This document shows positions 8,640 to 34,151 of a stretch of 64,000 nt of DNA, one piece after another. Source of the stretch: Proteromonas lacertae (taxonomy: Eukaryota); the NCBI GenBank assembly GCA_002245135.1, contig NGBS01000318.1:1-64000 (forward strand), written 5' to 3'. The notes below the pieces were generated by a model, which worked only from the letters and a program-made list of their open reading frames with translations, was not told the DNA's origin and did not search any database. Position 1 is the first letter of the stretch. Each line of letters opens with the position of its first letter. A program made the position numbers and the translations under genes.

Positions 8640-8759
8640 ATAATAATATATAGTAAGGGCTACAGACCATTAGGCTCGAATGCTGTGCCACCAAGCTAGA
8701 CCACGAGTAACGCATCTTTTTTTATAACTTGTTTGATCAAGCCTCAATTCTATTTTGCA
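8640..8759 (+). repeat. Left terminal inverted repeat (120 bp)
   Basis: ATAATAATATATAGTAAGGGCTACAGACC...TCTATTTTGCA is the exact reverse complement of 34032-34151. Confidence 0.97.
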
Positions 8760-8929
8760 AAGGTTTGACTTGAACAGTTGGTTTGTGTATCGAACTTCAA
8801 TTATATTTTGAATTTATTTAATTGGCTTGTCCGAATTAAAATTGAAGAAACGTTTCAGAATATTTGTGTTTCGACATTGTACAAAAATCGAAACGGCATT
8901 TTGGACAAATTTGAATTTTTGAATTTCGC

Positions 8930-8931
<2 letters not shown>
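8745..8931 (+). repeat. Internal imperfect inverted repeat, left arm (partner at 10202-10317)
   Basis: TTGACTTGAACAGTTGGTTTGTG...TTATTTAATTGGCTTGT and AATTTTTGAATTTCGCGC match the reverse complement of 10202-10317. This arm has about 70 extra bp (about 8831-8900). Confidence 0.88.

Positions 8932-8932
<1 letters not shown>

Positions 8933-8973
<41 letters not shown>
8933..8973 (+). repeat. Poly-T tract (41 nt)
   Basis: Direct count. Confidence 0.95.
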
Positions 8974-10102: not shown

Positions 10103-10201
10103 TTAATTAATTAAAAAACTATTTTATACACTTACAATTATTAATTACTAATTGGTTTGAATGTTTGTTTGAGTTTTGGGTGAACCATTTTTAAAAATAA
10201 A

Positions 10202-10317
10202 GCGCGAAATTCAAAAATTTAAATTTATCTAACAAGCCAATTAAATAATTTCAAAATAAAATTGAAATTTGATGCACAAACCAACTGTTCAAGTCAAGCC
10301 TTGTCAAAATAGATTTG
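10202..10317 (-). repeat. Internal imperfect inverted repeat, right arm
   Basis: Reverse-complement match to 8745-8830 plus 8901-8931. Confidence 0.88.
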
Positions 10318-10440
10318 AAAATTCAAATTTTTCGAATTTTCTAAAAATTTCTTAATATTCTATTTTTGACATAACGATTGAGAATTAAACTTCAATCGAT
10401 ATTGTTCGAAGTGAAGCGTCACGTATATATTATTTGAGGC

Positions 10441-11593: not shown

Positions 11594-12562
11594 ATGTTAG
11601 TCTCTAATCATCGTGTATATTACTTAAATTCCGATATGGTAATGACTACAGGGACATTTGGAGTAGGGAATAGATACAAAAAGACCTTAGCTTTACCAAC
11701 ATTTGATCAAGATTATACTCATGTGTCATTATTACATGCAGTTGTCCCAAATTCTTTCCCTACTATACAAGCAGAGACAAACGATACGTTACAGTTCTTA
11801 TTTACTGTAGGTTACTATGATAATCTTTGGCCATTACCAACTTCTCCTACAGTAAGTGTTAAAGTTACCATTCCAGAAGGTTTTTATGATGAGAATCAGA
11901 TTTTAAAGTTATTCAATGATAAAATAAGAGAAATTAAATTTACAGATTTTGGAATAGAAACAAATGATGTAGTTCGTCCTTTTGATAAGATTGATGTACC
12001 TATAATAGAAGAAAAAGGAGATTTATTTGGAATAGATAACAATGGTAATAATCGAACAAATCATATAAAAGTAGCAAGTAATATGAATGTTATATATACT
12101 GATGGAAGTCCTTGGTTTTGGATAAAGAAGATTGAAATTATAACAAGTGACTTGAGTTACAAGTTATTAGGTATTCCTAAGAGTAATTATTGGTTATGTT
12201 TTGATAATTATGAACCGCCATATAATGGACATGGATCTGGAGCATATGTATTAATTCCAACACCATTTCCATTTGATCAATTACCATATCGTCCATCACT
12301 TATATGGGTTAATTCAATATCCATTCGTTTAGATATTGTAAACATCATTCAAGATTCAAATGTATTAGAAAATATACCAATAGCAAACCCTGAGTTACCA
12401 TTCATTACATATCAGAATAATGACATACTTAATACTAGCAAAATGTTTAATAATACTTATACCAATGGTCAAATTGCTATTCAGATTACTCAACAAAATG
12501 GTTATGAACTAAATCTTGATAATATCGAGTTTAATTTAGATATTGTTGTCTTTAAAGTCTAA
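11594..12562 (+). CDS. Minor capsid protein (penton, single jelly-roll) candidate
   Basis: YYLNS near the N-terminus, VSLLHAVVPNSF, VTIPEGFY and C-terminal IAIQITQQNGYELNLDNIEFNLDI are typical of Polinton/virophage pentons. It lies directly upstream of the major capsid gene. Confidence 0.8.
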   Translation: MLVSNHRVYYLNSDMVMTTGTFGVGNRYKKTLALPTFDQDYTHVSLLHAVVPNSFPTIQAETNDTLQFLFTVGYYDNLWPLPTSPTVSVKVTIPEGFYDENQILKLFNDKIREIKFTDFGIETNDVVRPFDKIDVPIIEEKGDLFGIDNNGNNRTNHIKVASNMNVIYTDGSPWFWIKKIEIITSDLSYKLLGIPKSNYWLCFDNYEPPYNGHGSGAYVLIPTPFPFDQLPYRPSLIWVNSISIRLDIVNIIQDSNVLENIPIANPELPFITYQNNDILNTSKMFNNTYTNGQIAIQITQQNGYELNLDNIEFNLDIVVFKV

Positions 12563-12592: not shown

Positions 12593-14041
12593 ATGTCTCT
12601 AACTATTCCAAAAGAGCAAAAACACGGTGTAGACGTTCCAGCGATGATGGCCTTTTACCAGTATGTCAAGTTGACACCGATGGAAACTAAATCATTCTAT
12701 CAACTTAAAGATAACACTTATTCAGATGAGATAAGGTTCGAATTAAGTGGTGAGAACATTATAAACCTTGCAAAGTCTTACATTCAATATGATATCGAAA
12801 TTGAAACTACTCCAATTAATAAAGCAGAGGCATTTTCAAAAAATGCTGCTAAAATAGCAGGTGATGCTGATTTGTATCCAAAGTATATAAAAGGAATGAA
12901 AGAAGGATTTGGAATTGCAGCATTTCGTTTATGTAATACTACAGGAACAGATCTAGTCAAGCTTGATGATAATTATGAACACTATAGAGTGTTTATGGAT
13001 GAATTAGTGAGAAAAAGATCAGACATTTTCTATCAATCAAACTATTATGATGGAATTCAATTGAAATGGAATGATGAATATCATGATCATTTAATTCAAG
13101 ATGAGAATGAATGGAATATGGATAAAGATGAAAATACACGAGTTACACCTGCTGGATCAGGTGATAGATATCAACAGTATAAAAAGTCAAAAACAATTCA
13201 TGTAAAGATGTTTTTAGGTAAGTTTTACAATACATTTTTATCAATGAAAAGTGATGTATTTTTTGGTGAAAGAATGTATTTGTGTTTCAATTTCCAACAA
13301 AGTCCTAAATTTGGACAAATTATGGGTTTTAATAATGATAAAGGTAATGAAACAGAAGTAAACTGGCCTGCAGATGGAATAAGACCAGAATCAATCAAGT
13401 TCAAGAATTTTTATTTCTATGCTTATTTGAATAAGGATACTCAATGTAATAACAATACAAGAAGTTATTGTTTATCTAAACCAATACAGTTTAATGATGT
13501 AAAGTGTCATACATTAACAGTAAATCAAGGTGGATCTGGACAATTCAACTATTCCTTTACATTAAATAGTTCAAATGGACCATTCTTACGTTATATTATC
13601 TATAGACCATGGATAGAAGGAAAACAAACAGGAGCAATAAGTAAGGAAGTAGCTGAAAACAGATATGCAATTATTCCTGAAAATGCACAATTCAGATGGA
13701 TGATTAATGATTTCGTGTATCAACCAGACTATTCATTAATGCAGTATTATGATAGTTACATGACTGTACAAGACTATTTCAAAGATTCATGGTTTGATAT
13801 ATTCAAAAAACATATTCCTTTTGAAAAGAAATTCTTTGAAATTTTGAATTTTGGATCAAAAGATTTAGATAATATCAAGAATCAGTCTGGCAGACCTTTA
13901 GCTAGTGACTTAAAAATCACTTTTGAGTTGTCTACACCAGGTACAAATGATTTCACTAACTACAACATAACTCATCGTTTCTACATTGTTACAGGAAGAA
14001 TGTGTACAATCAATGGAAGTGGAATTGTAAGTGTTATTTAA
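12593..14041 (+). CDS. Major capsid protein (double jelly-roll) candidate
   Basis: 482 aa and beta-rich. N-terminal EIRFELSGENIINLAKSYIQYDIEI resembles Polinton/PLV major capsid proteins. It sits between the penton and the ATPase. Confidence 0.78.
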   Translation: MSLTIPKEQKHGVDVPAMMAFYQYVKLTPMETKSFYQLKDNTYSDEIRFELSGENIINLAKSYIQYDIEIETTPINKAEAFSKNAAKIAGDADLYPKYIKGMKEGFGIAAFRLCNTTGTDLVKLDDNYEHYRVFMDELVRKRSDIFYQSNYYDGIQLKWNDEYHDHLIQDENEWNMDKDENTRVTPAGSGDRYQQYKKSKTIHVKMFLGKFYNTFLSMKSDVFFGERMYLCFNFQQSPKFGQIMGFNNDKGNETEVNWPADGIRPESIKFKNFYFYAYLNKDTQCNNNTRSYCLSKPIQFNDVKCHTLTVNQGGSGQFNYSFTLNSSNGPFLRYIIYRPWIEGKQTGAISKEVAENRYAIIPENAQFRWMINDFVYQPDYSLMQYYDSYMTVQDYFKDSWFDIFKKHIPFEKKFFEILNFGSKDLDNIKNQSGRPLASDLKITFELSTPGTNDFTNYNITHRFYIVTGRMCTINGSGIVSVI

Positions 14042-14105: not shown

Positions 14106-14954
14106 ATGAGTAAAATAAAACTAGAGAAATGTAATGACGTTGTTATAACACCAGTAGAATCAGTAGTCAAAGGTACTAAAAAGAGATCGAGAGATAATGT
14201 TCTAGGTTATGATTATTTTGAAGAGCCTTTTTGTAACATATTTATACTAGCTAAGAAGAACAGTGGAAAGACAACACTTATATTTAATATGATACAACAC
14301 TTGTTGAAGAAGAATTATGATCAAACAGTATATTTCTTTGTAGGAACAATTTCAAAGGATATTATTTATGAAAAGATCACTGATATGTTAAAGTACAATT
14401 TAATAGAATACCATTGTTACGATTCAATAGTAAATGAAGATAGAGTGAATGTATTAGAAGCAGTACTAGAAAACATTAAAGAAGTAGATAAAGAAAACTA
14501 TAATTACCCAGAGAACATATTCATATTCGATGATATATCATTCGATTTATCAAATAAGACCGTTTCAAAACTACTCAAATCAAACCGTCATTACAAGTCA
14601 AAAGTAATAATATCAAGTCAATATGTTACAGATTTAACACCATCCGTTCGTCTACAATTAGATTACTGTTTAGTATTTAGAAATCTAAGTTTAGCTAATC
14701 TACACAGTGTTCATAACAGTTTAGATTTGTGGGTAGATTTCAGTAAGTTTAGAGAATATTACAAGTATGCAACCAACTACAGTAATCATTCATTCCTCTA
14801 CATTGATATGTGCAATCATGAATTTCGTGTAAACTTCAATATGAAAATTAAAAATGATAATAACGGATATAAAAGTGATAATGATGATAATACCAGCATT
14901 AGTTCCTCCTCTTCTTCCTCTGATTCGTCCGATACTGATGATGATTCAGAATAA
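14106..14954 (+). CDS. A32-like (FtsK/HerA) genome-packaging ATPase
   Basis: Walker A AKKNSGKTT, Walker B IFIFDD, and the RHY and SSQY motifs of the A32 family. Confidence 0.92.
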   Translation: MSKIKLEKCNDVVITPVESVVKGTKKRSRDNVLGYDYFEEPFCNIFILAKKNSGKTTLIFNMIQHLLKKNYDQTVYFFVGTISKDIIYEKITDMLKYNLIEYHCYDSIVNEDRVNVLEAVLENIKEVDKENYNYPENIFIFDDISFDLSNKTVSKLLKSNRHYKSKVIISSQYVTDLTPSVRLQLDYCLVFRNLSLANLHSVHNSLDLWVDFSKFREYYKYATNYSNHSFLYIDMCNHEFRVNFNMKIKNDNNGYKSDNDDNTSISSSSSSSDSSDTDDDSE

Positions 14955-18762: not shown

Positions 18763-19233
18763 ATGGCTAAGAAAAGTAAGAAGAAATATCGCAAGTGTGT
18801 TGTAGGAAAAGGTTTCTGGGGAGATTTAAATAAAGGACTGAAAGATACTAAAGTAATATCATCAGGTTTAAGTATGATTCCAGGATGGGCTGGTAAACTT
18901 ACTTCAGGAGTTGCTAAGTTATTAGGTTATGGTCGTAGAAGGCATAGAAAGAGTAGAAAAGGTGGTTCTTCAAAATGGTCAGAACTAATTAAGAAATATG
19001 GCAAATCAGGCAATAAGTTATTAAGCATAAAAGCTGTTGGTGGACCTGATTCATACTTTAAGAAAACAACTCAAGGTAGTGGACTTTCAATAGCTACAAA
19101 ACATTGGATTAAAGGACCTGGTGGAATTTATAAAGGAAAGACAGGTTCAGGAAGACGTCGTCATAGAAAAAGTAGTCGTAGTGGTAATAATGCTCTTAAT
19201 CGTTATCCTGATAATAAGATAAGAGTAGTTTAA
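18763..19233 (+). CDS. Basic virion core protein precursor with adenain-type GxG/GG sites
   Basis: VVGKG-FW, LLGYG-RRRHRK, RKGG, QGSG and TGSG-RRRHRK; K/R-rich overall. Confidence 0.72.
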   Translation: MAKKSKKKYRKCVVGKGFWGDLNKGLKDTKVISSGLSMIPGWAGKLTSGVAKLLGYGRRRHRKSRKGGSSKWSELIKKYGKSGNKLLSIKAVGGPDSYFKKTTQGSGLSIATKHWIKGPGGIYKGKTGSGRRRHRKSSRSGNNALNRYPDNKIRVV

Positions 19234-19291: not shown

Positions 19292-19606
19292 ATGGTTTTA
19301 GGTGGTAGAAGACATAGAAGACATCGAAGAAGACATCAAGGTGGTTCTTGGAAATCAGTGTGGGGTAAGATCAAAAATGGTGCAACTAAAGCCTTTCATT
19401 GGGCTAAAGATCATAAGATAGCATCAAAGATCGCAAAAGAGTTTGGTAAAGATGGTCTAGCAGATGGATTAGAAAAGATAGGATTTGGTAGACGTAGAAG
19501 AAGACATGGAAGAAGAGGTGGAGCTAGAATGCCATTCAATGGAGGTGGTAGCAATCAACAAGCTTTACTTAATGCATACTTGAAAACAAAAGTTGCACGT
19601 ATGTAA
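19292..19606 (+). CDS. Arg-rich core protein with an adenovirus pVI-like amphipathic helix
   Basis: VLGG-RRHRRHRRRHQGG-SWKSVWGKIKNG, IGFG-RRRRR and RRGG. Confidence 0.72.
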   Translation: MVLGGRRHRRHRRRHQGGSWKSVWGKIKNGATKAFHWAKDHKIASKIAKEFGKDGLADGLEKIGFGRRRRRHGRRGGARMPFNGGGSNQQALLNAYLKTKVARM

Positions 19607-19695: not shown

Positions 19696-20298
19696 ATGAG
19701 TGAATCAGAATCTGATGATTATTCTAGTGATACAAGTTCAGTCACATCAACTGAGAGTGAATTAGAAGACAAACTTCCTGAAATGAAATCAACTTCAAGA
19801 ATCGATCCTAGTGAACCAAGTGAAGAAATGATTAAACAGTTCTTAATGAAGAGTTCACCAAAGAAAGTATATAAGATGCTCACAAGTGAAGATGACGATG
19901 ATGTTAGTGAAGATAGAAAACATGGTAAACATAAGAGTAAGAGACATCGTTCAAGATCACCTATAAAGAGAAGATCAAAGAAAGATAAAGATGCTTTAGA
20001 AGCTCCAGTAAAAGGTAAAGGTAAACGTAGATCTAAAGATAGTGATTCTTTACCACCACCAAGTAGAATGACTAAAGCAGAATTACAAATTGCATTGAAA
20101 GAAGAAAGAGATAAGAATTCTAAACTAATGAAGAAATTAGAGAAAGGATCTAATCCAACAAAGAAAGAACGTAAGCCAAAAGATGTTAAAGAGGATAATA
20201 AGAAAGAAGAAGAGATAGAAGATGAAAAACCTTTAGGTAATGATATTATGGGAAGACCAATACAAGGCGAACCTATCGAGCCTATTTATGTTAAGTAA
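19696..20298 (+). CDS. Viral S/D/K/R-rich low-complexity protein
   Basis: 200-aa ORF with an acidic N-terminus, RSRSP and a short coiled coil. Confidence 0.7.
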   Translation: MSESESDDYSSDTSSVTSTESELEDKLPEMKSTSRIDPSEPSEEMIKQFLMKSSPKKVYKMLTSEDDDDVSEDRKHGKHKSKRHRSRSPIKRRSKKDKDALEAPVKGKGKRRSKDSDSLPPPSRMTKAELQIALKEERDKNSKLMKKLEKGSNPTKKERKPKDVKEDNKKEEEIEDEKPLGNDIMGRPIQGEPIEPIYVK

Positions 20299-20343
20299 TA
20301 ATTATCATAATAACTATACTATTCATATTTTGTTTGTTTAATC

Positions 20344-21549
20344 ATGGTTACTAAAACTCAGTTAAAAAAACTCTTAGAGAAGCGGAAGAAAGGTGTATCT
20401 AGAAAGAAAAGAAGAAAACATAGCTTTAAAGGTCATAACAAATACTACCAATCACTTTACAGTAAATTCTATAATGACACTACCAATGATGTTCTAAGTA
20501 AAAGAATAGGTACTAGAAACACTGAACTAGATGAAATAAAGAATATATTAGGTAAACTGAATGAGCAGAAACAACATACATCAAATACTATACCATATGA
20601 TTTAAAAATAGAAGAATTATCATCACAGCAGAAACTATTAGAGAGACAGAATGCAGTAGATCAACAACTGGCTAGTTCTCTAAGATTAGGTAATAGTATG
20701 TCAAATCCAATTGCAAGAAATTATAGAGAACTTGATGATCAACACTTATTTGGATCTTCTATTTATGCTAATTCAAATAGACCTGATTATAATGCTATAG
20801 CAAGACAACAAGCTGAAGCAAAAATGAAAATGAATCAAATTCTGAGTGATCCTGTTAATCAGATGAAGATGCAGATGCAAATGGTATAATATTAACATTC
20901 TATTATATTATTTTAGTAGAGAAATAAAAAATATAAACCTAGTTTAGTTTTTAATAACAACACAAAATCAAAATCAAAAGTAGATCCTAAAACAGTTGTT
21001 AAGGATGATAAAAAAGAAGAAGAAGAGAAGAAGGAAGAAAAAGTAGAAGAAGAAGAGGACAAGAAACAAGAAGAAGAAGAAAAGCCAGAAGTGAAGGAAG
21101 AAAAAGATAAAGAAGAAGAAGAACAACCTAAAGAAGAAGAACAACCTAAAGATGAACCTAAAGAACAACCTAAAGAAGAAGAAAAGAAAGATGAAGGACC
21201 TCCAGTAATAACTGTAGATATACAAAATATAGAAAAATTATTCAACGAAACTCTTAGATTACCTGAATTCAAATATGTAACTATGCTTATAGGAGATTTT
21301 TATTCAGTAGCAAAAACTAAATCAGTAAAAAGAATTGATTGGACAGTTATTGGTCATGAAACAGAAGAAGAAAAGAAAGAAAGAAGGAGTAAAATAATGT
21401 ATTTAATTCCTCGAGAAGATTTAGCAAAAGCAGTAATAAAAGGTCAGTCCTTCAGTGACTTCATATATGAAAGTATGGATTTAATTGATGAAGCATTTGC
21501 ACCACGTATGATAAAGAAACAAAGGAGAAGGAAGAAGAAAAATTATTAG
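20344..21549 (+). CDS. Viral hypothetical protein, probably spliced (exons 20344-20883 and 20920-21549; 389 aa)
   Basis: A GT-AG intron at 20884-20919 joins two same-frame ORFs. The downstream E/K-rich frame is open from 20920 with no ATG near its start. Confidence 0.65.
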
Positions 21550-21618: not shown

Positions 21619-24600
21619 ATGACTGCTCCAACAAAGCGTAAGCATAAAGAAAAAGAATCAGTGGACTTTGACAATCCATCCATCTATCACAATGCGTTGA
21701 AAAGAAAATTGAAGAAAATGATTTATGATAGAGCATCTTCAAATAAGAAGGTCAAGTTAGATTTAAGTCATATGGCTAACCCAACAAGAGCAGTTGATAA
21801 AGGTAATGCTACAAATGAATTAGAGATTTACGATCCTTATACAAAGAATATGGTTAAAACATTTGGTGATGACTACGATGTAACATTTGATGATAATAGT
21901 AAAGATAAGCCAATGAATCCAAACCTCAATGCCACCAAGAACAATTACATGACTGATGAAATGAAGTATAAGTTGTACATGAGTGGTATTACTGATCAGT
22001 ATGGAAGGTATTATAGGAATATAGGTCAGTTTAATAAACCTTATTCAAATTACTATGGTGATCCTACAAACTTAACTAATATTTATCAAAATCCTTTTGG
22101 TCCTCCTAATCCTTATCAACAATTGCAACAAGGATTATATCAAGATCCAGTAACAGGTCAATGGTCTATGAGTCAGTGGAACAATCCTGCTCAGTACAAT
22201 ACTCAATCATATATAAATAGTCAGAGATGGAATAACAATAGTTTAGATAGTAACTATGAAGTAAAACAGCAATTACAGATAAAAAATGCTGCATTAGAAG
22301 ATGCAAAGAAAACAATTGAAAGAATGACTGAAGAACAACAGAAGACTTTATGGCATCATATTAATGAAACATTTAAAGGTACAACTTGGTGGGATTGGGG
22401 TACATGGGGTGTTAAATTTTTAATGTGTACTTTAGTTTTAGGTGGTATTGATATAGCATTCAAATATGTATTCCCTAATCAATTAGGTGTTCTATTATCT
22501 GGTATATTTAATATGGGTGTTAGATCAAGTGATTATTGTGCAAAGTTATTTGGTATATCTCAAGCTAATGTACAATATGCTTCATTCTTTGGATCATGGT
22601 TACCCACAACATACCAATTCATTAAAGCAGGATGGCAAGGAGGTGTAACTGGTTTAATGGATTTTGCAGTTAATCAGTTAAGAAATGTATGGAATTTCAC
22701 CAAGAACTTGTTCACTGGTTTCTTCAATTCGGTCAAGAGCGTTTGGAGCTCGATAACCGACGGCCTGCCTTGGAGCTCTGGAAGCACTGAAGATTCTGGT
22801 CCTACGGATGTTACAAAGTTATTTAGTAGTAAATATGAAACACCCCCTTCTTCAGTACCTTTAGCTTTACCAGCTCCAGAAGCTCCCCAACCTATAACAG
22901 CTCCAGATAAACAGCTGGTTGTCTACGGGGATTCAAATGCTACAAATACTACAGGTACATTAAACGGCGCAGGAAAGAAGCATGTAAGCTTTGGTCCTAA
23001 ATACGGGGGGAGCTCTGAAGCTAATCCTGTATACAACGCAAATATGGATGGAACAAATCCACCCACGGCGATTGCCGTGGGTGGATACGTCCATCCATAT
23101 TTTCTTCAAGAGTCTGCTCAACCTCCTGTAGAGGGATATGATATGGGTTATACATGGAGACACTTAGGAAGAGGTTTAGATTCAATAATGGGTAAAGGAA
23201 AGTTAGACAAGTATAGAAGACATAAACATAAACATAAGTTATTAAAGAAGCTTCCACGGAGGCATCTCTGTCATAACAAGAGATTATTAAAAAAAGGTGG
23301 TGCAAGTCTTATACCACCAGGTTATGTAACAGAACCTCCAGAACCTTCAGCTTCAAACAATGGTGTAGTAAATGTTGGTTACTATTATCCTCAAGGTAAA
23401 AATATTCAATTCTGGAATGGTTTGAGAAAACTATTTAATGCTGCAGATGCTGCACATGTAAATCAAGGACAAATGTATGAACCTTCAAGCTTGAATGATT
23501 ACAATTTAAATATGCCACAACATCCTTTCAATGAAGTTGGTTGGGGTGATATAGGATGGGGTACTATAAGAAGTTTAGATCCTAAAGCAAGAACAGAATT
23601 TGCAGCACAACTTGCAAACGATGGTGCTCAACAAGCAAGACAATTTAAACCAAAGTATTACTATGACTGGGATGAATTTCTTCACTTTCAAGATAAAGTG
23701 TATGCAGATCATTCAAGTGATCCTGATTATTATTTAAACAAAGCAACATGGAAATATAAACCTATTACGATTGATCCAACTAATGGTGCAAGTAACTTCA
23801 AGTATTTAGGTAATCCAAAATATGTTAATGAACAAGATTTTGTAACATATGATTGGGGTGATAATAAAGTAACTGATCCTTTAGCTAGATTTAATCCAGC
23901 CTTTGCTAAAATGAATGCAGAGGATATAAGAGCTGCTCTTAATCCAGGTATATCATCAAGACTAAAAGATCCTTTTCATTTAAACAAATCTGATATTGAA
24001 TACCAAGAGAAAGTTGGTTTACAGCAAGAAGTATTAAACAATGATTATACAATTGGACTTAATAATATGTATAATAACATGAAAGATAACAAATTGGATA
24101 AAGCGTACAAATGGAAAGCATATTCACAACAGCTTGGAAGAAGACTAAGATCAGATGATGAAATTAAAGAGAGAGCTGATCTTAATAGACTTCTTAGTAT
24201 TGATCCTGCTTTAGCTGAGAAAGCAAAACAATTACATGATATAGAAACATGTGAAATAGATGAAAATAGAAGAGTCATAATTCCAGATGAACAAGCATTT
24301 ATAAAGGATAACATCATTCAACATGAAAATACTCCTGAAAAAATTAATCATGAATTGAATGATAAAATGTTAGGTCATAAAGTTCCTGTTGATTGGAAGG
24401 ATGGTGATATGCAGGAAAAGATAAAAATAGGTTGGGAGTTACTTAAAAATGCCTGCAGTCAATGGAAAGAATTTGAAGGTAGTCAGTTCCAGAAGGCACT
24501 TCAATCACTGAATGAAGGTGACTTCATAGAGTTCGGTCATAACTTATACTTGTGTGTGAAGAATATTTTTAGAATTTTCCCTATCATATTTTATACATTC

Positions 24601-25866
24601 AAAAATTATTTACATGGTGGTGTCACTCCTGATATGGTTGAAGTTGATAATGCTATGCAGTATGCTAACTGTATTATAATTACATGCATAGCATTTTGGT
24701 TATGGAAGAAAGGGAAGTTAGGAAATTTTGGATTCGTGACAGTGTTATGGTTCTACATATTTGATTACTATACTATAATACAAAAGATAACTGGTAATCG
24801 TTTACCTGACATAACTACCTTAGCGAATAACAATTATGATACAGTGAGTAAAATGTTACCTACAGCACTTCAAAATTCATGGTTACCTATGCAATTCATA
24901 TACAATTGTGGTACTTCATTCTTATTCAACTCACATCCTTATGTTAAAATATTAGCAAATGCTGCACCCTTCTTTTTCAAATTTGCAAAGTTCGGTAAGT
25001 TAGATACTAAGAATGGAATTACAGGAATGATAATGTCACTACTAAGTGGAGGTAAAACAAAAGGAATGAAAGGTTTCTTAGGTAAAGTAGGTACATGGGG
25101 AACAGTACTTAGTGCCTTCGGTGCTTGTGTTGGATTGATAGTACCTAGTGCATTATCTACATTTTTAAGTACAGGAACTGTTCCTCAGAACAATCCTGTA
25201 TTCGATCCTAACAATACACTCAATACTCCAAATGGTTTATCTAACTTCGTGAGTAGTGGATTACAACTTCAGGAAATATGGCAAATAATGAAAGCATTAG
25301 GTTATGCAGGTAAAGGTAAGAATAAACTATGTTCACGAAGGATACTTTTGTCTAACATCAATAGTAAAGATGCATTATCGAACTTTGATATTGAAGAAAT
25401 TATTCAAAAAGAATTCAATGATTTTGACAAGAAGTTCAAAGGTTGTTTCTGTTGGGATGAATTGGTACTTCCTATACCTCATAAAATGGATCAGTGGGGA
25501 ATCATAATCAATACACTGACTACAAAAGCAAAACCAGATAGTGTAGGTCATTGGGTAGCTTTAGTAGTAGATAACAAAAAGAAGATGTTCATGTACTATG
25601 ATTCTTTTGGTGAGGATCCTCAACACTTGAGTAATTTCAAAGAATGTTTGAAGAAGTTTAAGAAATTTCATGAAAAACCATATCAGTTAAAAATCAATGC
25701 AGTTCAGAACCAGAACAGTAATACAAACAATTGTGGTTTTTTCGCAATCAATTTTTTGAACGATATATTAAATAGAAAAAGAACATTCAAGCAGGCAACA
25801 GATTTTAATACAGTAGTTGGTGAGAAAAGAGTAGCAATGATGAAAAAAGAGTTTGGAATAGTATAA
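21619..25866 (+). CDS. 1415-aa polyprotein-like membrane protein with a C-terminal adenain-like (clan CE) cysteine protease
   Basis: C-terminal GIIINT...GHWVAL...YYDSFG...QNQNSNTNNCGFFAINFL (His-Asp-Gln-Cys). Several hydrophobic segments and internal GxG/GG motifs. Confidence 0.88.
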   Translation: MTAPTKRKHKEKESVDFDNPSIYHNALKRKLKKMIYDRASSNKKVKLDLSHMANPTRAVDKGNATNELEIYDPYTKNMVKTFGDDYDVTFDDNSKDKPMNPNLNATKNNYMTDEMKYKLYMSGITDQYGRYYRNIGQFNKPYSNYYGDPTNLTNIYQNPFGPPNPYQQLQQGLYQDPVTGQWSMSQWNNPAQYNTQSYINSQRWNNNSLDSNYEVKQQLQIKNAALEDAKKTIERMTEEQQKTLWHHINETFKGTTWWDWGTWGVKFLMCTLVLGGIDIAFKYVFPNQLGVLLSGIFNMGVRSSDYCAKLFGISQANVQYASFFGSWLPTTYQFIKAGWQGGVTGLMDFAVNQLRNVWNFTKNLFTGFFNSVKSVWSSITDGLPWSSGSTEDSGPTDVTKLFSSKYETPPSSVPLALPAPEAPQPITAPDKQLVVYGDSNATNTTGTLNGAGKKHVSFGPKYGGSSEANPVYNANMDGTNPPTAIAVGGYVHPYFLQESAQPPVEGYDMGYTWRHLGRGLDSIMGKGKLDKYRRHKHKHKLLKKLPRRHLCHNKRLLKKGGASLIPPGYVTEPPEPSASNNGVVNVGYYYPQGKNIQFWNGLRKLFNAADAAHVNQGQMYEPSSLNDYNLNMPQHPFNEVGWGDIGWGTIRSLDPKARTEFAAQLANDGAQQARQFKPKYYYDWDEFLHFQDKVYADHSSDPDYYLNKATWKYKPITIDPTNGASNFKYLGNPKYVNEQDFVTYDWGDNKVTDPLARFNPAFAKMNAEDIRAALNPGISSRLKDPFHLNKSDIEYQEKVGLQQEVLNNDYTIGLNNMYNNMKDNKLDKAYKWKAYSQQLGRRLRSDDEIKERADLNRLLSIDPALAEKAKQLHDIETCEIDENRRVIIPDEQAFIKDNIIQHENTPEKINHELNDKMLGHKVPVDWKDGDMQEKIKIGWELLKNACSQWKEFEGSQFQKALQSLNEGDFIEFGHNLYLCVKNIFRIFPIIFYTFKNYLHGGVTPDMVEVDNAMQYANCIIITCIAFWLWKKGKLGNFGFVTVLWFYIFDYYTIIQKITGNRLPDITTLANNNYDTVSKMLPTALQNSWLPMQFIYNCGTSFLFNSHPYVKILANAAPFFFKFAKFGKLDTKNGITGMIMSLLSGGKTKGMKGFLGKVGTWGTVLSAFGACVGLIVPSALSTFLSTGTVPQNNPVFDPNNTLNTPNGLSNFVSSGLQLQEIWQIMKALGYAGKGKNKLCSRRILLSNINSKDALSNFDIEEIIQKEFNDFDKKFKGCFCWDELVLPIPHKMDQWGIIINTLTTKAKPDSVGHWVALVVDNKKKMFMYYDSFGEDPQHLSNFKECLKKFKKFHEKPYQLKINAVQNQNSNTNNCGFFAINFLNDILNRKRTFKQATDFNTVVGEKRVAMMKKEFGIV

Positions 25867-26737: not shown

Positions 26738-28030
26738 TTATACAATTGTATCATCACCTTTTTTGATTCTGGGTCTTTCAAGAATACGTCTAAAATGAGT
26801 TTCAGGATCTCTTCTAGCAACTAATTGTAACTCATAATGTTTGAATCTATATCTAGATACATCAGGATCCCAATTACCGTTTATATCTCCTAATACATAA
26901 GAGTACCTGTTTTTATGTCTAATACGATATATCTTATCTGACCAATAAGTTCCTTTATCCATTTTTCTTCTTTGTTCATGAAACCTAACTAAATCTCCAA
27001 CTTGAAATTTTGTTTTTAATCTTTGTTCATTATTGAAATTGTATTTAACTGATTCCATTAACATTCTGTTTTGTAGTTTAGGACTATTGTATACTTCGTT
27101 AGGTGTATAATCTCTCAAACTTGATAAAGGTTTGTTATTATAATCATAAACAGTTTCTTGTACAATTTGATTGAAACGTGACAACCATCTCTGATCAATG
27201 ATTTCTCTTCTATCGTTTCTATCTATATTAGCTTGAAACTCTGGTGCATCTATACCTAAATCTATTAAATGTTTATATAATAATTTCTTTACAAGACTTA
27301 CAGATCTTTCCAATACCATTTCTATTCTATGTTCTGATGGCATCTTTTGAAAGAATGTAATTCCTTCTTGATCTAATAATGGTTTGATTGCATTGAAACT
27401 ATTTTGCATATCACACAAGACACTTACTACACGTCTTTTAGATACTACTTGAGAACCATCTTCATTTGTTTTAAAATACCATGCTCTAAAAGCACTTTCA
27501 ATACTTGGTCCTTTTTCATCACGTAATGGGATTGCCCATACTTTTCTGGAATTCATTTCTATCAAATATAAGTAAGGATGATAAGGTAAAAAGTAAACAA
27601 CATCCATTTGGAAGTATCCAGGCTTCTTGATACTTGCAAAAGGTAAATCTTGATTGTATTTAAAATCTACTATTTGACGACCAGGCTTTCTTCTTAGATA
27701 CTCTCTAACTACATCATAAGGTGGTGGAACATCATTAAGTTCTGCTGCTTCTTGTGTTAGTTTAATAAATTGTTTTTCACTTAAATAGTAATACTTATCA
27801 TAAAGTCTATCTAGATATTCTCTATATTCATCGATCTGTCTGGATATTTCATCATTTTCATATGGATTTGGTCTTGGATTATTCTGTATTGACGGTGGTG
27901 CATTGTTAAAATTCCTCGCATAATTTTGCTCATCTCTTGAGTCAACATGTCTATAGCCTGGTGGCAACTCTTGAGCTGTATCTGGATTTGGGTAAGAGTA
28001 AGACTTATTATAAAAATAATTAGCAAGCAT
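26738..28030 (-). CDS. Retroviral-type (rve, DDE) integrase of Polinton type
   Basis: FQMD, SRKVWAIPL, VLCD, LERS, YNNKP..L...TP, KFQVGDLVR, WSDKIYRI and YELQ. Confidence 0.9.
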   Translation of the reverse strand: MLANYFYNKSYSYPNPDTAQELPPGYRHVDSRDEQNYARNFNNAPPSIQNNPRPNPYENDEISRQIDEYREYLDRLYDKYYYLSEKQFIKLTQEAAELNDVPPPYDVVREYLRRKPGRQIVDFKYNQDLPFASIKKPGYFQMDVVYFLPYHPYLYLIEMNSRKVWAIPLRDEKGPSIESAFRAWYFKTNEDGSQVVSKRRVVSVLCDMQNSFNAIKPLLDQEGITFFQKMPSEHRIEMVLERSVSLVKKLLYKHLIDLGIDAPEFQANIDRNDRREIIDQRWLSRFNQIVQETVYDYNNKPLSSLRDYTPNEVYNSPKLQNRMLMESVKYNFNNEQRLKTKFQVGDLVRFHEQRRKMDKGTYWSDKIYRIRHKNRYSYVLGDINGNWDPDVSRYRFKHYELQLVARRDPETHFRRILERPRIKKGDDTIV

Positions 28031-28089: not shown

Positions 28090-31000
28090 CTAATTAAAGA
28101 CATTATTATAATTATCGTACATATTTCTAGCAGCTTCACTTTCATTTGGATCACGATTCAATAAGTATGGAACTGAGCTGATTCTAGTTAAATAACATCT
28201 TTTAATATCAAATATTGTAAATGCTAATTTAGGTACACGAACTGTATACAATACTTGTTTTGCACTTCTGAAACTGTACTGATCTACATATACTTTTTGT
28301 AAATCTCTACTATCTAAAATATTAGTGTAATAATCATAATCACATGTCTTTACTCTATAACCTTTAGATACACCTTTTGCTCTTGAATCAGATTTAAACA
28401 AGTGTATAGGTCCATCCACTCTCTGTTTTTCATAAGCATACATCTTTGCTTTCAATCCACAGAATCTTGTTATTGTGTATAACTGATCACTTTTGTTCTC
28501 TTCCATTTTAAGTAAGTTAAGTTCACCTGTTCTTTGATAGTTTTGATATCTGATACCTCTTTGCTTTAGATAATCACAATTAATATTACCAGTATCCATA
28601 CAACCTTGAATTGTTAAATCATCAGCAATATCTCTGTAAAAGTCTTTTGTAGCAACTCTGAAGATAAAAGAATCTGTATCTGTCATCAGTAAAGTAAGAC
28701 CATCTCTATATTTTCTGTATAATTGTCCATACCAAAACTTTGCCATTAAATACTTTGATTGACAGAGAATAGCCATTCCAATATAGCTTGGTTTATCAAT
28801 TGCACATTTATACTTCTTAAACTTACACACTCTTAAGTCACATCCATCAATTGATACAAAACCTGTAAAGTATGGATTACTTGTACACTTTAAGAACTGT
28901 TCTTCACTATTCACCAACTTACTTCTACATCTATTCTCTGTATTTTCACATGTCTTACCATATGCACTGTTAAGGATTAGTTTAAACGTATCTGCTTCAG
29001 CATCTCTATGTGCTGACTTTGCAGCCTTCCTTAATAGATGACACTGCATCACGAAATCATAAGCATAAGCTGTTTCACAAAAACTAATCACTCTCCATAC
29101 TTTGTTTACTTTATAACCTAACTTCACAGCATAGTTCAGATATTGATAATGAACAACATAGTGATACTTCCTACTCAAATCGCATATTATTCTTGGAGTG
29201 TTATTCTTCAATTCTCCATTCTTATCCACCATACCTAATTCTATAGCCCATTGCTTCTGTTCTTGTGACAAGTCTCTAAAGTATATCATCTTTCTCTCAG
29301 GGAATAAAGGATACTCTGAAAATCCACAACGATCTGGTGGATCTATATCAACTTCTAATATATAACCTCTACTCTCTGGATCTTTCCACAACTTCTGATC
29401 TTCTGGATTTGATGAATGCATTATATCTTCATAAGGTTTCATTTTCTTAATGACATCTATATAGATTTCTGGTTTCTCCCATCTGAAATCTTTATATGGT
29501 AACTTCATTGATGCCATTGTAGAAGGATACAGAGAATTATAATCCACATACATAATATAGGATTCTCTTTTTGGTGGGATTGCATGAAGATCTTCAAAGA
29601 ATGGTGGATCCATATAATGGTTCTTGGCTTCAGCCTTTCTCATTGATCCAATCATTGAAATACCTCCAATCAATCCTTTTCGAATGAAATCATACTTGTC
29701 TTGATCAGCTAACAATTCAATCTTTACATTACACCTTCTAAGAAATATAGACCATGCTAAACCTGGACAACTAACATGCCAACATGGATCTAATATAAAA
29801 TGCTTAAACACTACATTTCTGAAATGGTCAAACACACTTGTAAGAGTTAATACATCCATTGCTAAATAGAATAAGTTATACTCCATTAGATCATTCATCT
29901 CCAATAACTTCCATAATGCTTGACAGGAATCATAAATATCTTGTGGTATTTCTTCTTCCTGTTTCAATTTAGACTTGAATGCTTCTCTTGGTGGTAACTC
30001 TTTTGTATTGTATAACTTATCTATATGATCAACATATTCGTAAGGGAAGTGACCTTTCTGCAATCCCCATTTCATCATGAAATCATTGACTGTCCAATCA
30101 TGGTCTTTTAAACACTTTTGTATCTTTGTATCTTCTCTTACATACTGGTATACAGGATGGAATAACTTTTCATATTCACCACCTGATTCAGCTTCTATCT
30201 TTAAGGATTGAACTATACTATCTAGTGATGAAGACATAAACTGAAAGCTATCAATGAAGTGTAGTTTGTTAAACTTTATCATTAAGAACTTATTGTCAGT
30301 CTTTAATAGAACTGATAACTTTGATCTATACTTTCTTTTATTATTATTCATTGGCTGAGTTGTTATTGGTTGAGATGTAACTATGTTTCCCATTTCTTCT
30401 TCTAAACCAAGATCTTCAGCTGTTCTAGGTGATAAGTATTCTTCTCTACTATGTAACATATAATATAACTCATTAAATGCTTCTTCATTGTTGGGATCGT
30501 TTTCATCTACTATTTCAATTGTATTTGGTGGTTCTATTGGTAATGGTATTTCTTCTTCATCTTCATAATCTTCTTGAGTTGATATATCTACTAATCTATC
30601 TTCTTCTTCTTCCTCTTCTTGTTTCTTTTCTTCTTCAATACCTCTATTATATTCAGTTAATCTTTCATCAACAGTTGTTGTAGTATCTGGTATTGGTATT
30701 GATGGTTGTGGTGGTTGTTGTATTGGTTGTTGTTGTTGTAATGATACATTCCACTCTGCTTCCATTTCTTTATCTAATTTTGATAATCCACGGATAATGA
30801 AGTTATTATCATAGTTCTTACTATTGTGTGCAATACAAGGTATTTGCAGATGTTGTAAAGAACAATGCCAATTACAGTTACTACATAATGTAGCAAGATA
30901 TTTTCCAGTAAAATGGTCATGGTGTCTTGTGCGTCTTTTATTTTTATCATTTTCATCAAATGGAGTGTTACACCACATACACTTTGTTATTTTTCTATGA

Positions 31001-32946
31001 ATTGGTATATATGTACTTTCATCCAAAGGCTTTAACTCTCCACTCTTATATTCTTCATATTTCGATAATACATACTCTTCTATTTCTACAAACTTTCTGA
31101 CCAATTCCATTTCCAAGTCTTCAGGATCTTGTTGTGGACCAAGTTTACCAAAGAAAGTTTCTTCACTGATAATATCTGGATATCTTGAACTTATATGTAT
31201 GCACCAACTACTTAACACATGTCTACTAAATGCACCTTTTGCACCAGGTATTGCTTGTGAAGGATCTATTGGTACTTGTATTACTTCTGTATCCCAATAT
31301 AAGACCACTGGAATCATTTGCATGAATTTGAAGTTATGGAATTCCAAGAAAGTATCAGGTGGTGGGAATTGACGAATGACTCCTCTCTGTAATTGACAAC
31401 TGGTTGAATTATGTAGTTTGAATGCTTGATCTGTTGATAAGGTACAAAAGCAGTATGGACATCTAGTGTAGTAATTATGACAACGCTTATTGTATGGTGC
31501 AAGGAAGGCTTCTAACTTTGTTATTGTCATGAAGTGTTCTTTATAAAACAGTATGTTGACATGTGGGTAGTGTAGCATCTTATCTATTGAAGTTCCATAC
31601 AATGGTATTGGTTCTTTATCCACAATTGTAAATATATTGATAGTGACATGATTCATTTGTTCAAACACTTCTATTCTACCACTATCAGTGATAGGATCAA
31701 TAGGAAACTTCAAACATGTTATATCCATTCTATAAACATACTCCTTATACTTCATAGCTCTATTTCTATGATCCTTAAACTCCATATGATGTAATCCTGC
31801 TGCAACACTATATATAAAACACATACTTTCAGCTTCCTTACTATAATTGGTTAAGTTGATTAAACACTTTCTTCTTACTAAACTTTCAGGTAATAATATA
31901 CTGACATTGTCTGTAGCTGATCCAGTACTTAATGATGTTCTCATCATAATCATTTCCACTAGAGCTATATGTTTATACTTCAAATCACTTCTTTCTGTAT
32001 TGAATATATTATTGAAATCTCTTCCCATTATTCTATTCAATTTTTGGCCAACACTTCCTAATTCACTTACAGTAACTGACTCTGGATTAGTCTCATAGGT
32101 TTTGTAACATAATGGATCAGTTCCTTCAATATCTATAACATTGGATCCAACATATGCAACTCTGATTCTGAATTGAACTTTGGCATGTTCAAAATGAGTT
32201 GTATTGAAATAGTTTCTCAATGCTTTCATATACTCTGATCTAGGATCTGTAACTTGTAACCATATAGCTTCATACTCTCTACATAATGGATCATCACTCC
32301 AATCATGAGAATAAGTTTCTTCATACCTTTCACTTGAACCATGAACAACATCTAAAACATATCTACGAAGATCAAATGGCATTTCTTTTAATCTTTCAGG
32401 ATGATTCTCAACAACATCTAAAGCTAACATTGCTTCTCTTCTAACTCTTTGATCTTCTTCACTAACAGGAGCATCTGGATGTGTTTCTTGTGGTGGTGGT
32501 GGTTGATCATCGTCTACAAGTGGAGATAGTGTTGGAGTAATCTCTTCAGGAGGAGTATCTGGTAATTGACTATCTGGTATCTCAGTTATTCTTTGTATCT
32601 TTGGTGGTGGTTCTTCAATTACAACTGATGAACTCGTTCTCTGATTAACTGGTGTAACATAACCTGGTTGAGCTGTAGTTGTTGAAGATGTTTGAGGTGG
32701 TGGTGGTGGTGCTGAACCTGTTGAAGGTGGAGGCATGATCCCTCCTGCTCCTCCATATACTGGATAAGGTGGTGGATAATACATTGGTGGAGGTGTTGGA
32801 GGAACATAATAAGGTTGGAACCAAGGATTGAAATAATTAAGAGGCATCATGGGTGGGTTACCTGGAGCTGTACCTTGTTGTGGCTGTTGTGAACTTGGTT
32901 GATTATAACCATACGGATTATAACCATAAGGATATCCTGGATACAT
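28090..32946 (-). CDS. polB: Protein-primed family B DNA polymerase with a terminal-protein region, vOTU-like, C2H2 and EndoVII/HNH-like domains
   Basis: Exonuclease motifs YWDTE, HNSKNYD and YLAMD. Polymerase motifs YVDYNSLYP, KLILNSAYGK, TDTDS and KMY. Also CFIYSV...HF (OTU-like), CPYC...H...C and CMWC...HHDHFTGKY...CSNCN. Confidence 0.96.
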   Translation of the reverse strand: MYPGYPYGYNPYGYNQPSSQQPQQGTAPGNPPMMPLNYFNPWFQPYYVPPTPPPMYYPPPYPVYGGAGGIMPPPSTGSAPPPPPQTSSTTTAQPGYVTPVNQRTSSSVVIEEPPPKIQRITEIPDSQLPDTPPEEITPTLSPLVDDDQPPPPQETHPDAPVSEEDQRVRREAMLALDVVENHPERLKEMPFDLRRYVLDVVHGSSERYEETYSHDWSDDPLCREYEAIWLQVTDPRSEYMKALRNYFNTTHFEHAKVQFRIRVAYVGSNVIDIEGTDPLCYKTYETNPESVTVSELGSVGQKLNRIMGRDFNNIFNTERSDLKYKHIALVEMIMMRTSLSTGSATDNVSILLPESLVRRKCLINLTNYSKEAESMCFIYSVAAGLHHMEFKDHRNRAMKYKEYVYRMDITCLKFPIDPITDSGRIEVFEQMNHVTINIFTIVDKEPIPLYGTSIDKMLHYPHVNILFYKEHFMTITKLEAFLAPYNKRCHNYYTRCPYCFCTLSTDQAFKLHNSTSCQLQRGVIRQFPPPDTFLEFHNFKFMQMIPVVLYWDTEVIQVPIDPSQAIPGAKGAFSRHVLSSWCIHISSRYPDIISEETFFGKLGPQQDPEDLEMELVRKFVEIEEYVLSKYEEYKSGELKPLDESTYIPIHRKITKCMWCNTPFDENDKNKRRTRHHDHFTGKYLATLCSNCNWHCSLQHLQIPCIAHNSKNYDNNFIIRGLSKLDKEMEAEWNVSLQQQQPIQQPPQPSIPIPDTTTTVDERLTEYNRGIEEEKKQEEEEEEDRLVDISTQEDYEDEEEIPLPIEPPNTIEIVDENDPNNEEAFNELYYMLHSREEYLSPRTAEDLGLEEEMGNIVTSQPITTQPMNNNKRKYRSKLSVLLKTDNKFLMIKFNKLHFIDSFQFMSSSLDSIVQSLKIEAESGGEYEKLFHPVYQYVREDTKIQKCLKDHDWTVNDFMMKWGLQKGHFPYEYVDHIDKLYNTKELPPREAFKSKLKQEEEIPQDIYDSCQALWKLLEMNDLMEYNLFYLAMDVLTLTSVFDHFRNVVFKHFILDPCWHVSCPGLAWSIFLRRCNVKIELLADQDKYDFIRKGLIGGISMIGSMRKAEAKNHYMDPPFFEDLHAIPPKRESYIMYVDYNSLYPSTMASMKLPYKDFRWEKPEIYIDVIKKMKPYEDIMHSSNPEDQKLWKDPESRGYILEVDIDPPDRCGFSEYPLFPERKMIYFRDLSQEQKQWAIELGMVDKNGELKNNTPRIICDLSRKYHYVVHYQYLNYAVKLGYKVNKVWRVISFCETAYAYDFVMQCHLLRKAAKSAHRDAEADTFKLILNSAYGKTCENTENRCRSKLVNSEEQFLKCTSNPYFTGFVSIDGCDLRVCKFKKYKCAIDKPSYIGMAILCQSKYLMAKFWYGQLYRKYRDGLTLLMTDTDSFIFRVATKDFYRDIADDLTIQGCMDTGNINCDYLKQRGIRYQNYQRTGELNLLKMEENKSDQLYTITRFCGLKAKMYAYEKQRVDGPIHLFKSDSRAKGVSKGYRVKTCDYDYYTNILDSRDLQKVYVDQYSFRSAKQVLYTVRVPKLAFTIFDIKRCYLTRISSVPYLLNRDPNESEAARNMYDNYNNVFN

Positions 32947-33867: not shown

Positions 33868-34031
33868 GTGTAGGTGGGTATAAGTGCAAGAATGAGTGTA
33901 ATTGCGAAAATGTGTAACGGTTGGCCGTCGGTTATTTCTGAGTAGTGTAACCGACGCGTAACCGAAAGTGTAACCGTTTGCAACCGTTAGAATTCCGTTA
34001 TGTCCAACCGTTATTGAATAAATTAAGATTA

Positions 34032-34151
34032 TGCAAAATAGAATTGAGGCTTGATCAAACAAGTTATAAAAAAAGATGCGTTACTCGTGGTCTAGCTTGG
34101 TGGCACAGCATTCGAGCCTAATGGTCTGTAGCCCTTACTATATATTATTAT
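34032..34151 (-). repeat. Right terminal inverted repeat (120 bp)
   Basis: Exact reverse complement of 8640-8759. Confidence 0.97.

Follow-up and report, generated by a model that had tools for sequence, protein, structure and literature searches.

The open reading frame (ORF) at positions 19292-19606 (+) of the analysed window, i.e. the whole stretch of 64,000 nucleotides from contig NGBS01000318.1 of Proteromonas lacertae, encodes a protein of 104 aa that probably represents a stand-alone homolog or variant of the tail that forms the C-terminus of virophage major capsid proteins (MCPs), located in a Polinton whose own capsid protein lacks this tail, and likely to be a core protein. As judged from sequence comparison, the initial annotation, which had proposed an adenovirus protein VI (pVI)-like membrane-lytic helix embedded in a protamine-like core protein, missed this much stronger homology.

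The 104-aa ORF is part of an intact-looking element of 25,488 bp (8652-34139), for which the following features were recorded:

8652-8760, +: left terminal inverted repeat, with ATATAT directly before it (8646-8651)
11594-12562, +: candidate minor capsid (penton) protein, proposed from position and size
12593-14041, +: predicted major capsid protein of 482 aa with a double jelly roll, lacking the C-terminal tail
14106-14954, +: packaging-type P-loop ATPase with weak FtsK and terminase matches
18763-19233, +: paralog ORF of 156 aa (neighbour ORF) with a shortened module at 18814-18930, followed by a basic tract and a second amphipathic helix
19292-19606, +: probable free-standing homolog of the virophage MCP C-terminal tail, 104 aa
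21619-25866, +: 1415-aa protein with a C-terminal clan CE cysteine protease domain (approx. 25504-25848)
26738-28030, -: probable retroviral-type integrase (weak transposase match, E=0.0098; D-D-E by eye)
28090-32946, -: pPolB ORF
34031-34139, -: right terminal inverted repeat, followed by ATATAT (34140-34145)

The terminal inverted repeats of 109 bp are identical at 108 of 109 positions and are bordered on both sides by the 6-bp target duplication ATATAT, which is weak on its own because the element flanks are AT-rich. The surrounding DNA features a GC content of 22-29% and fragmented eukaryote-type ORFs. Measured against the definition used as membership standard (10.1101/2023.08.22.554363), the element is a Polinton, since it combines the Polinton/Maverick hallmarks, namely terminal inverted repeats, a target duplication within the range of 5-8 bp, pPolB (PF03175, E=2.7e-21), an ATPase, a protease and a double-jelly-roll capsid protein. 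The protease domain was assigned to clan CE (C48, E=8e-7; C5, E=1e-3) and possesses His1311, Asp1328 and Cys1372. Assignment to the virophages (Maveriviricetes) by capsid sequence was not obtained, as no match to the Sputnik MCP Pfam family was found, and family searches with the penton candidate (11594-12562) retrieved no match. The near-identity of the repeats and the length of the open frames point to a recent insertion rather than to infectivity; real extracellular infectivity, as previously claimed for this locus, does not follow from a motif.

Within the pPolB ORF, a weak Endonuclease_7 (HNH-type) match (30043-30993, approx. residues 652-693, E=0.0068) recalls an HNH insert reported for nematode pPolB2. 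Sequence adjacent to the left repeat occurs in internal inverted copies at 8744-8940 and 10193-10318 (87 nt at 90% and 65 nt at 75% identity), which enclose two small ORFs. The 1415-aa protein (21619-25866) contains seven GG and six GxG sites as well as hydrophobic segments, and an amphipathic stretch (residues 364-381, moment 0.62) is located soon after the GG at residue 341. Judging by these features, this protease-ended ORF resembles a polyprotein that would process itself and contain additional membrane-active candidates. Moreover, two highly charged small ORFs are located downstream of the 104-aa ORF on the same strand (19696-20889), encoding 200 aa (Ser/acidic, then Lys/Arg-rich) and 181 aa (with a basic N-terminus). 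Both may be part of the same core-protein block; family searches with these two ORFs yielded no match.

For the capsid ORF (12593-14041), a model calculated from a six-sequence alignment reached a pLDDT of 55 (low confidence), and folding of the single sequence resulted in a pLDDT of 29. The former model matches double-jelly-roll capsid proteins (best Foldseek match Sputnik 3j26, E=3e-8; VIA Z <=11.2), and on the basis of this model the protein is regarded as a double jelly roll. Neither BLASTP nor sequence searches of the PDB recognised the capsid ORF, and comparison with 11 virophage MCPs (hhalign, 0.25%) indicated that it is not virophage-like in sequence. Its final residue aligns with residue 487 of the mavirus protein, in which the tail begins at residue 517. 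Furthermore, a search open to lengths of 265-844 aa yielded the members of the capsid family, 6/6 of which terminate at one common motif. Since the capsid protein is tail-less and the neighbour ORF carries a second copy of the module, the most parsimonious interpretation is that the tail is probably supplied in trans by the 104-aa ORF and the neighbour ORF. Several virophages with an intact tail likewise possess a separate gene harbouring tail-like modules, clearly so in L026 and L084 and with the first helix only in L042, L081/L085 and L090; a free gene therefore need not replace a lost tail. The separate Gly-rich virophage gene encodes 340-400 aa (L026:9698-10909, L084:3428-4639, L014:9683-10879; relatives in L027, L031, L032 and L048) and features repeated tail-like modules and a common conserved basic C-terminal motif.

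The 104-aa protein comprises the following parts:

19307-19345, +: Arg/His-rich leader, residues 6-18, net charge +7, with a Gly-Gly site on each side
19346-19486, +: module of 47 residues (19-65), from GG to GF-G, probable counterpart of mavirus MCP-C1
approx. 19346-19405, +: first amphipathic helix of the module
19487-19522, +: basic tract of 12 residues (66-77), net charge +7, with a Gly-Gly end; place and size match mavirus C2 (13 aa)
19523-19603, +: C-terminal 27 residues with one more Gly-Gly

The sequence HQGG-SWKSVWGKIKNGATKAFHWAK (residues 15-39), the Arg/His tracts and the Gly-Gly sites are present as initially described. The protein contains 16 Arg, 12 Lys, six His, 17 Gly and five acidic residues, corresponding to a pI of 12.0 and a net charge of +23. 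Its density of GG/GxG sites (5.8 per 100 aa) is the highest among the 23 element ORFs, followed by the neighbour ORF 18763-19233 (5.1) and the remaining ORFs with values of <=1.0 per 100 aa. The best 18-mer of the protein (residues 18-35, charge +4) shows a hydrophobic moment of 0.53 (100 degrees), with W20, V23, W24, I27, A31, A34, F35 and A38 on one helix face, and thus the amphipathic helix expected from the initial annotation was recovered. This moment was equalled by 343 of 10,000 within-segment shuffles and by 373 of 3000 whole-protein shuffles, and of the 18 further element ORFs that were scored, 10 contain an 18-mer as good or better. The amphipathicity is genuine but modest, and it is unremarkable on its own because whole-protein shuffles and 10/18 scored ORFs match it. 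In the neighbour ORF, the second helix after Gly-Gly (window 18967-19044) features a higher moment than the flagged helix (0.65 vs. 0.53), which was reached by 24 of 3000 whole-protein shuffles. The last 27 residues of the 104-aa protein (19523-19603) represent its best-conserved part within the close family, ahead of the helix; distant relatives lack them. Searches of PHROGs and NCBIfam with the 104-aa ORF returned only one weak hypothetical match.

Nine close relatives of the 104-aa protein (53-76% identity) were identified. Because they retain the reading frame, the sites and both ends, the ORF is considered a real gene on the evidence of sequence conservation. The Trp-x3-Trp spacing of the pVI look-alike was found in just two of the 10 close-family rows. 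Viral and metagenome contigs were also searched for loci of these close relatives, and none was found. A profile search yielded 14 relatives, and 31 were obtained from a library clustered at 50%; three long proteins among these 31 wide-search matches (P0018, P0025, P0035) are regarded as false, since they arose from low-complexity flanks and were unmatched by the module HMM. At least 36 free-standing relatives were found. The shared unit of approx. 47 residues consists of a Gly site, an aromatic/Lys helix, K-x-x-K-[IL]-x-S, a turn, a helix and G[YF]G, and occurs singly or in tandem arrays of two to four copies with Arg tracts between them. In total, 58 free modules were found, of which 51 were parsed; the parser needs an upstream Gly site and sometimes ends early, and its start-site counts were set aside. 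The first 18 residues are amphipathic at p<=0.05 in 31/51 parsed free modules and not significantly so in 20/51; after the site of parsed virophage tails they are amphipathic in 11/11 cases.

A tree calculated from 29 modules over 54 columns supported four of 26 inner branches and did not reject the tails as one clade (p-AU 0.515), and consequently it does not order fusion versus fission. Among the 25 distant free-standing relatives (P0013-P0041), whose rows are not independent, 13 end in Phe/Tyr at a distance of 4-21 residues past a Gly site, compared to a background of 6%, and Tyr is the last residue in six of 11 virophage tails. Such a terminus is possibly a docking or protease-cofactor end. 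PDB matches to ImpA, CbpF, bL9m, sC4, CRASP-2 and marnavirus VP4 (E 0.007-4.6) were dismissed as fortuitous. For the second half of the tail profile, the match to the 51-aa VP4 of an RNA virus capsid (alignment A5, PDB 6shl_D; E=1.2) is at chance level.

The relationship to virophage tails emerged from several types of comparison. An unbiased search of 1.84 billion proteins led to the virophage capsid protein P0034 (E=8.6e-5), which was matched in its tail only (residues 487-557). A degenerate pattern of the module core was detected on 13 viral contigs, in 13/13 cases at the C-terminal end of ORFs of 355-615 aa, and 11/11 ORFs tested by Pfam, two near-duplicates being excluded, are virophage capsid proteins. 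A second pattern representing the first helix alone again retrieved virophage tails, in which the second half of the module is present (L052, L096). Profile-profile comparison with the tails resulted in values of 95.9% for the close family, 98.6% for the wider family (53 columns) and 96.3% for the neighbour ORF. Furthermore, when 785 six-frame segments were screened with an HMM built from tails only, the 104-aa ORF and the neighbour ORF ranked first and second (E=8e-9 and 5e-4; next segment 0.25); the 104-aa ORF scored 15.6 bits, and 1000 shuffles reached at most 6.9 bits. Since the tails had been picked by the pattern, the 12 pattern columns were neutralised. Under these conditions the 104-aa ORF scores just 5.0 bits, which was reached by 5/1000 shuffles (neighbour ORF: 0/1000), and among the 23 free-standing relatives tested, 15 outscored every one of 200 shuffles and the others were each reached by at most eight of 200. 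Direct comparison of a module-only profile with the mavirus tail gave a weak match (E=1.0, rank 2 of 3). The profile built from 11 virophage capsid proteins matches the mature Sputnik capsid protein, whose end at residue 508 falls right at the first site. The same profile spans the whole mavirus tail with the GG and GY-G sites in register. The length of tail modules ranges from 46 to 55 aa.

In addition to sequence homology, the 104-aa ORF shares the architecture of the virophage MCP C-terminal domain, in which a module of approx. 50 aa is preceded by GG↓X and succeeded by GX↓G, with a basic piece and GG coming next. Covalent joining to the major capsid protein was not observed, as the 104 aa are encoded by a separate ORF; the protein is therefore classified as a homolog or variant of the domain and not as a strict member.

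Processing of the corresponding tail has been described for mavirus, whose MCP C-terminal domain is cut by the virion clan CE protease; the cuts were mapped by mass spectrometry to four sites, GG↓X in three cases and GY↓G in one, resulting in fragments of 51, 13, 12 and 14 aa (Born et al., PMC6048507). According to the same study, the basic fragments were proposed to hold DNA, and the first fragment, featuring a predicted amphipathic helix, might, as a proposed lytic role, rupture endosomes; the tail fragments were undetected in virions, and processing stabilises mavirus particles at low pH, contrary to adenovirus (PMC6048507). The virophage tail (mavirus, Sputnik; PDB 6g45, 3j26) and the 104-aa protein share one order of elements, in which the homologous module of approx. 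50 aa (47 aa in the 104-aa protein) extends from GG to G[YF]G, contains a predicted amphipathic helix and is followed by a basic piece of 12-13 aa and more GG sites; both are strongly basic. Likewise, protease, ATPase and jelly-roll capsid protein are encoded in one genome in virophages and in the element. Unlike virophages, the element possesses a separate 104-aa gene 5 kb away from a tail-less, non-virophage capsid gene, and the encoded protein differs from the virophage tail by an extra Arg/His leader and by its duplicate in the neighbouring ORF. The fragments predicted for the 104-aa protein after the Arg/His leader comprise 47, 12, 8 and 19 aa; the first two correspond to those of mavirus in sequence or composition and the last two in layout only.

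Based on this parallel, the 104-aa protein is proposed to be an internal core protein that would be cut by the protease of the element into DNA-binding basic pieces and a predicted membrane-active helix. By analogy, it would very likely be packaged together with the DNA through its Arg tracts, and cleavage at the predicted positions 18/19, 65/66 and 77/78 would probably take place during maturation. Release of fragment 19-65 with subsequent disruption of the endosome on entry is given about an even chance, and a slightly lower one is assigned to docking on the inward-facing side of the capsid protein.

Similarity to the tails could also have arisen by convergence of glycine-rich basic amphipathic sequence. 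Low-complexity flanks did produce the 3/31 false matches in the wide search, and the first-helix motif recurs in tape-measure proteins: 80 of 93 ORFs carrying it were found outside a virophage context, and 11 of 15 checked encode phage tape-measure or tail proteins, which indicates that the motif arises convergently. However, the similarity to tails covers 53 columns over the full length including both borders, was evaluated by composition-keeping shuffle controls, and 0/80 non-virophage look-alikes match the module end to end. Convergence is thus largely refuted and considered highly improbable. A far more credible alternative, which nevertheless falls noticeably short of an even chance, regards the protein as a DNA-condensing or scaffolding core protein (pVII/mu-like) with helices that pack on the capsid protein or on each other and never lyse membranes. 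This reading is in line with the net charge of +23, with the ordinary moment of the helix among the element ORFs, with the acidic residues in the second half of the module, with tandem arrays of two to four modules, as suited to a stoichiometric core protein, and with the distribution of Arg tracts, which occur after 39/51 and before 44/51 free modules vs. 2/11 and 0/11 tails, respectively. It accounts poorly for the conserved N-terminal aromatic, Lys-rich helix exactly past the cut site in both tails and free genes, and is also opposed by weak matches of two distant members to a scorpion antimicrobial peptide and of one to dermaseptin (E 0.01-0.035).

True homology to adenovirus pVI, uniting tail, free gene and pVI in one family, is compatible with the proposed cleavable core protein and is itself rather unlikely. 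Like the 104-aa protein, pVI is basic, encoded by a separate gene and possesses an amphipathic helix starting straight after a GG site, with 7/11 residues identical at the helix start (residues 19-29 of the 104-aa protein); adenovirus mu is likewise a short basic segment, excised by cleavage at two sites (PMC7998265). When 177,635 PDB sequences were searched with a 23-row family profile at E<=10, the only match was human adenovirus pre-protein VI, residues 29-54 (7s78_W; E=1.3, 11.5 bits), including the GG before the lytic helix (residues 34-54; 10.1101/857581). Furthermore, the virophage tails L010 and L013 share 8/9 residues with pVI 41-49, and none of the 80 non-virophage look-alike ORFs attains the 11.5 bits of the pVI domain match (best ORF 9.7 bits); one of them reaches the whole-sequence score. 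In favour of homology, 13/25 distant free-standing relatives share with the C-terminal cofactor peptide of pVI an end in Phe/Tyr shortly past a Gly site. On the other hand, E=1.3 is within the noise range, in which unrelated PDB matches of another profile were obtained (E=0.55-2.1), and the match spans 24/128 profile positions without covering the second half of the module. Moreover, pVI was absent from four other PDB profile searches, Pfam searches revealed no adenovirus family, and the first-helix motif is prone to convergence.

Differences to pVI also concern the cleavage sites and termini. The adenain consensus, as quoted, is (M/I/L/N/Q)XGG↓X or (M/I/L/N/Q)XGX↓G, but the P4 residues of the ORF are V2, H15, K62, R74 and F82, and M/I/L occupies P4 in 2/51 free modules; the looser mavirus rule fits the sites. 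With approx. 250 aa, pVI exceeds the 104-aa protein in length and comprises a 33-residue hexon-binding propeptide and an 11-residue C-terminal protease cofactor. In the 104-aa protein this propeptide is absent, an 18-residue Arg/His leader being found instead, and the C-terminal residue is Met; cofactor-like Phe/Tyr ends occur in distant relatives only (13/25, as given above). By analogy, the 104-aa protein plausibly works like pVI. The initial annotation was substantiated in so far as the protein is basic, of core type and punctuated by Gly-Gly, has a conserved amphipathic helix, similar to the start of the pVI helix, directly past a probable cleavage site, and is encoded close to a clan CE protease; membership in the pVI family was not established.

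Membrane-active core proteins have previously been proposed for Polinton-type viruses, and the 104-aa ORF resembles these genes. 'VI' genes were labelled in protist MELD viruses, and Cupiennin and PLA2X/GasderminX in adintoviruses (Starrett et al., PMC8502044); adomavirus LO6 was proposed as a fused pVI+pX and found cleaved in virions (Welch et al., 10.1101/341131), and the 'Macc' class was defined by Buck et al. (PMC11071296). Since pVI-like core genes of such viruses are in print, the general idea of the initial annotation had already been published. A link to the virophage capsid tail is not drawn in the accessible text of these descriptions. Likewise, the virophage tail as a free Polinton gene, or a kinship between tail and pVI, was not found stated in the accessible open literature, where supplements may name the family otherwise, and the accessible parts of PMC4409740, PMC6905037, PMC9952930, PMC8097293 and 10.1101/2025.10.09.676808 contain nothing relevant to a link between tail, free gene and pVI.

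The link to the tail addresses an open matter, namely maturation of Polinton particles and their entry into cells. An unannotated core-gene family is tied to a capsid tail with mapped cut sites, which provides exact fragments for testing. It is conceivable, if doubtful, that the virophage tail, the Arg-flanked Polinton core genes and pVI are one ancient entry module that switches between fusion to the capsid protein and a gene of its own, and the similarly tentative corollary is that the element analysed here catches this module in its split state. If true, this would explain the origin of pVI and provide protist Polintons with an entry mechanism. By tying the family to the tail, the analysis shows that the latter can occur either joined to the capsid protein or on its own, and opens a testable path towards the origin of adenovirus pVI.
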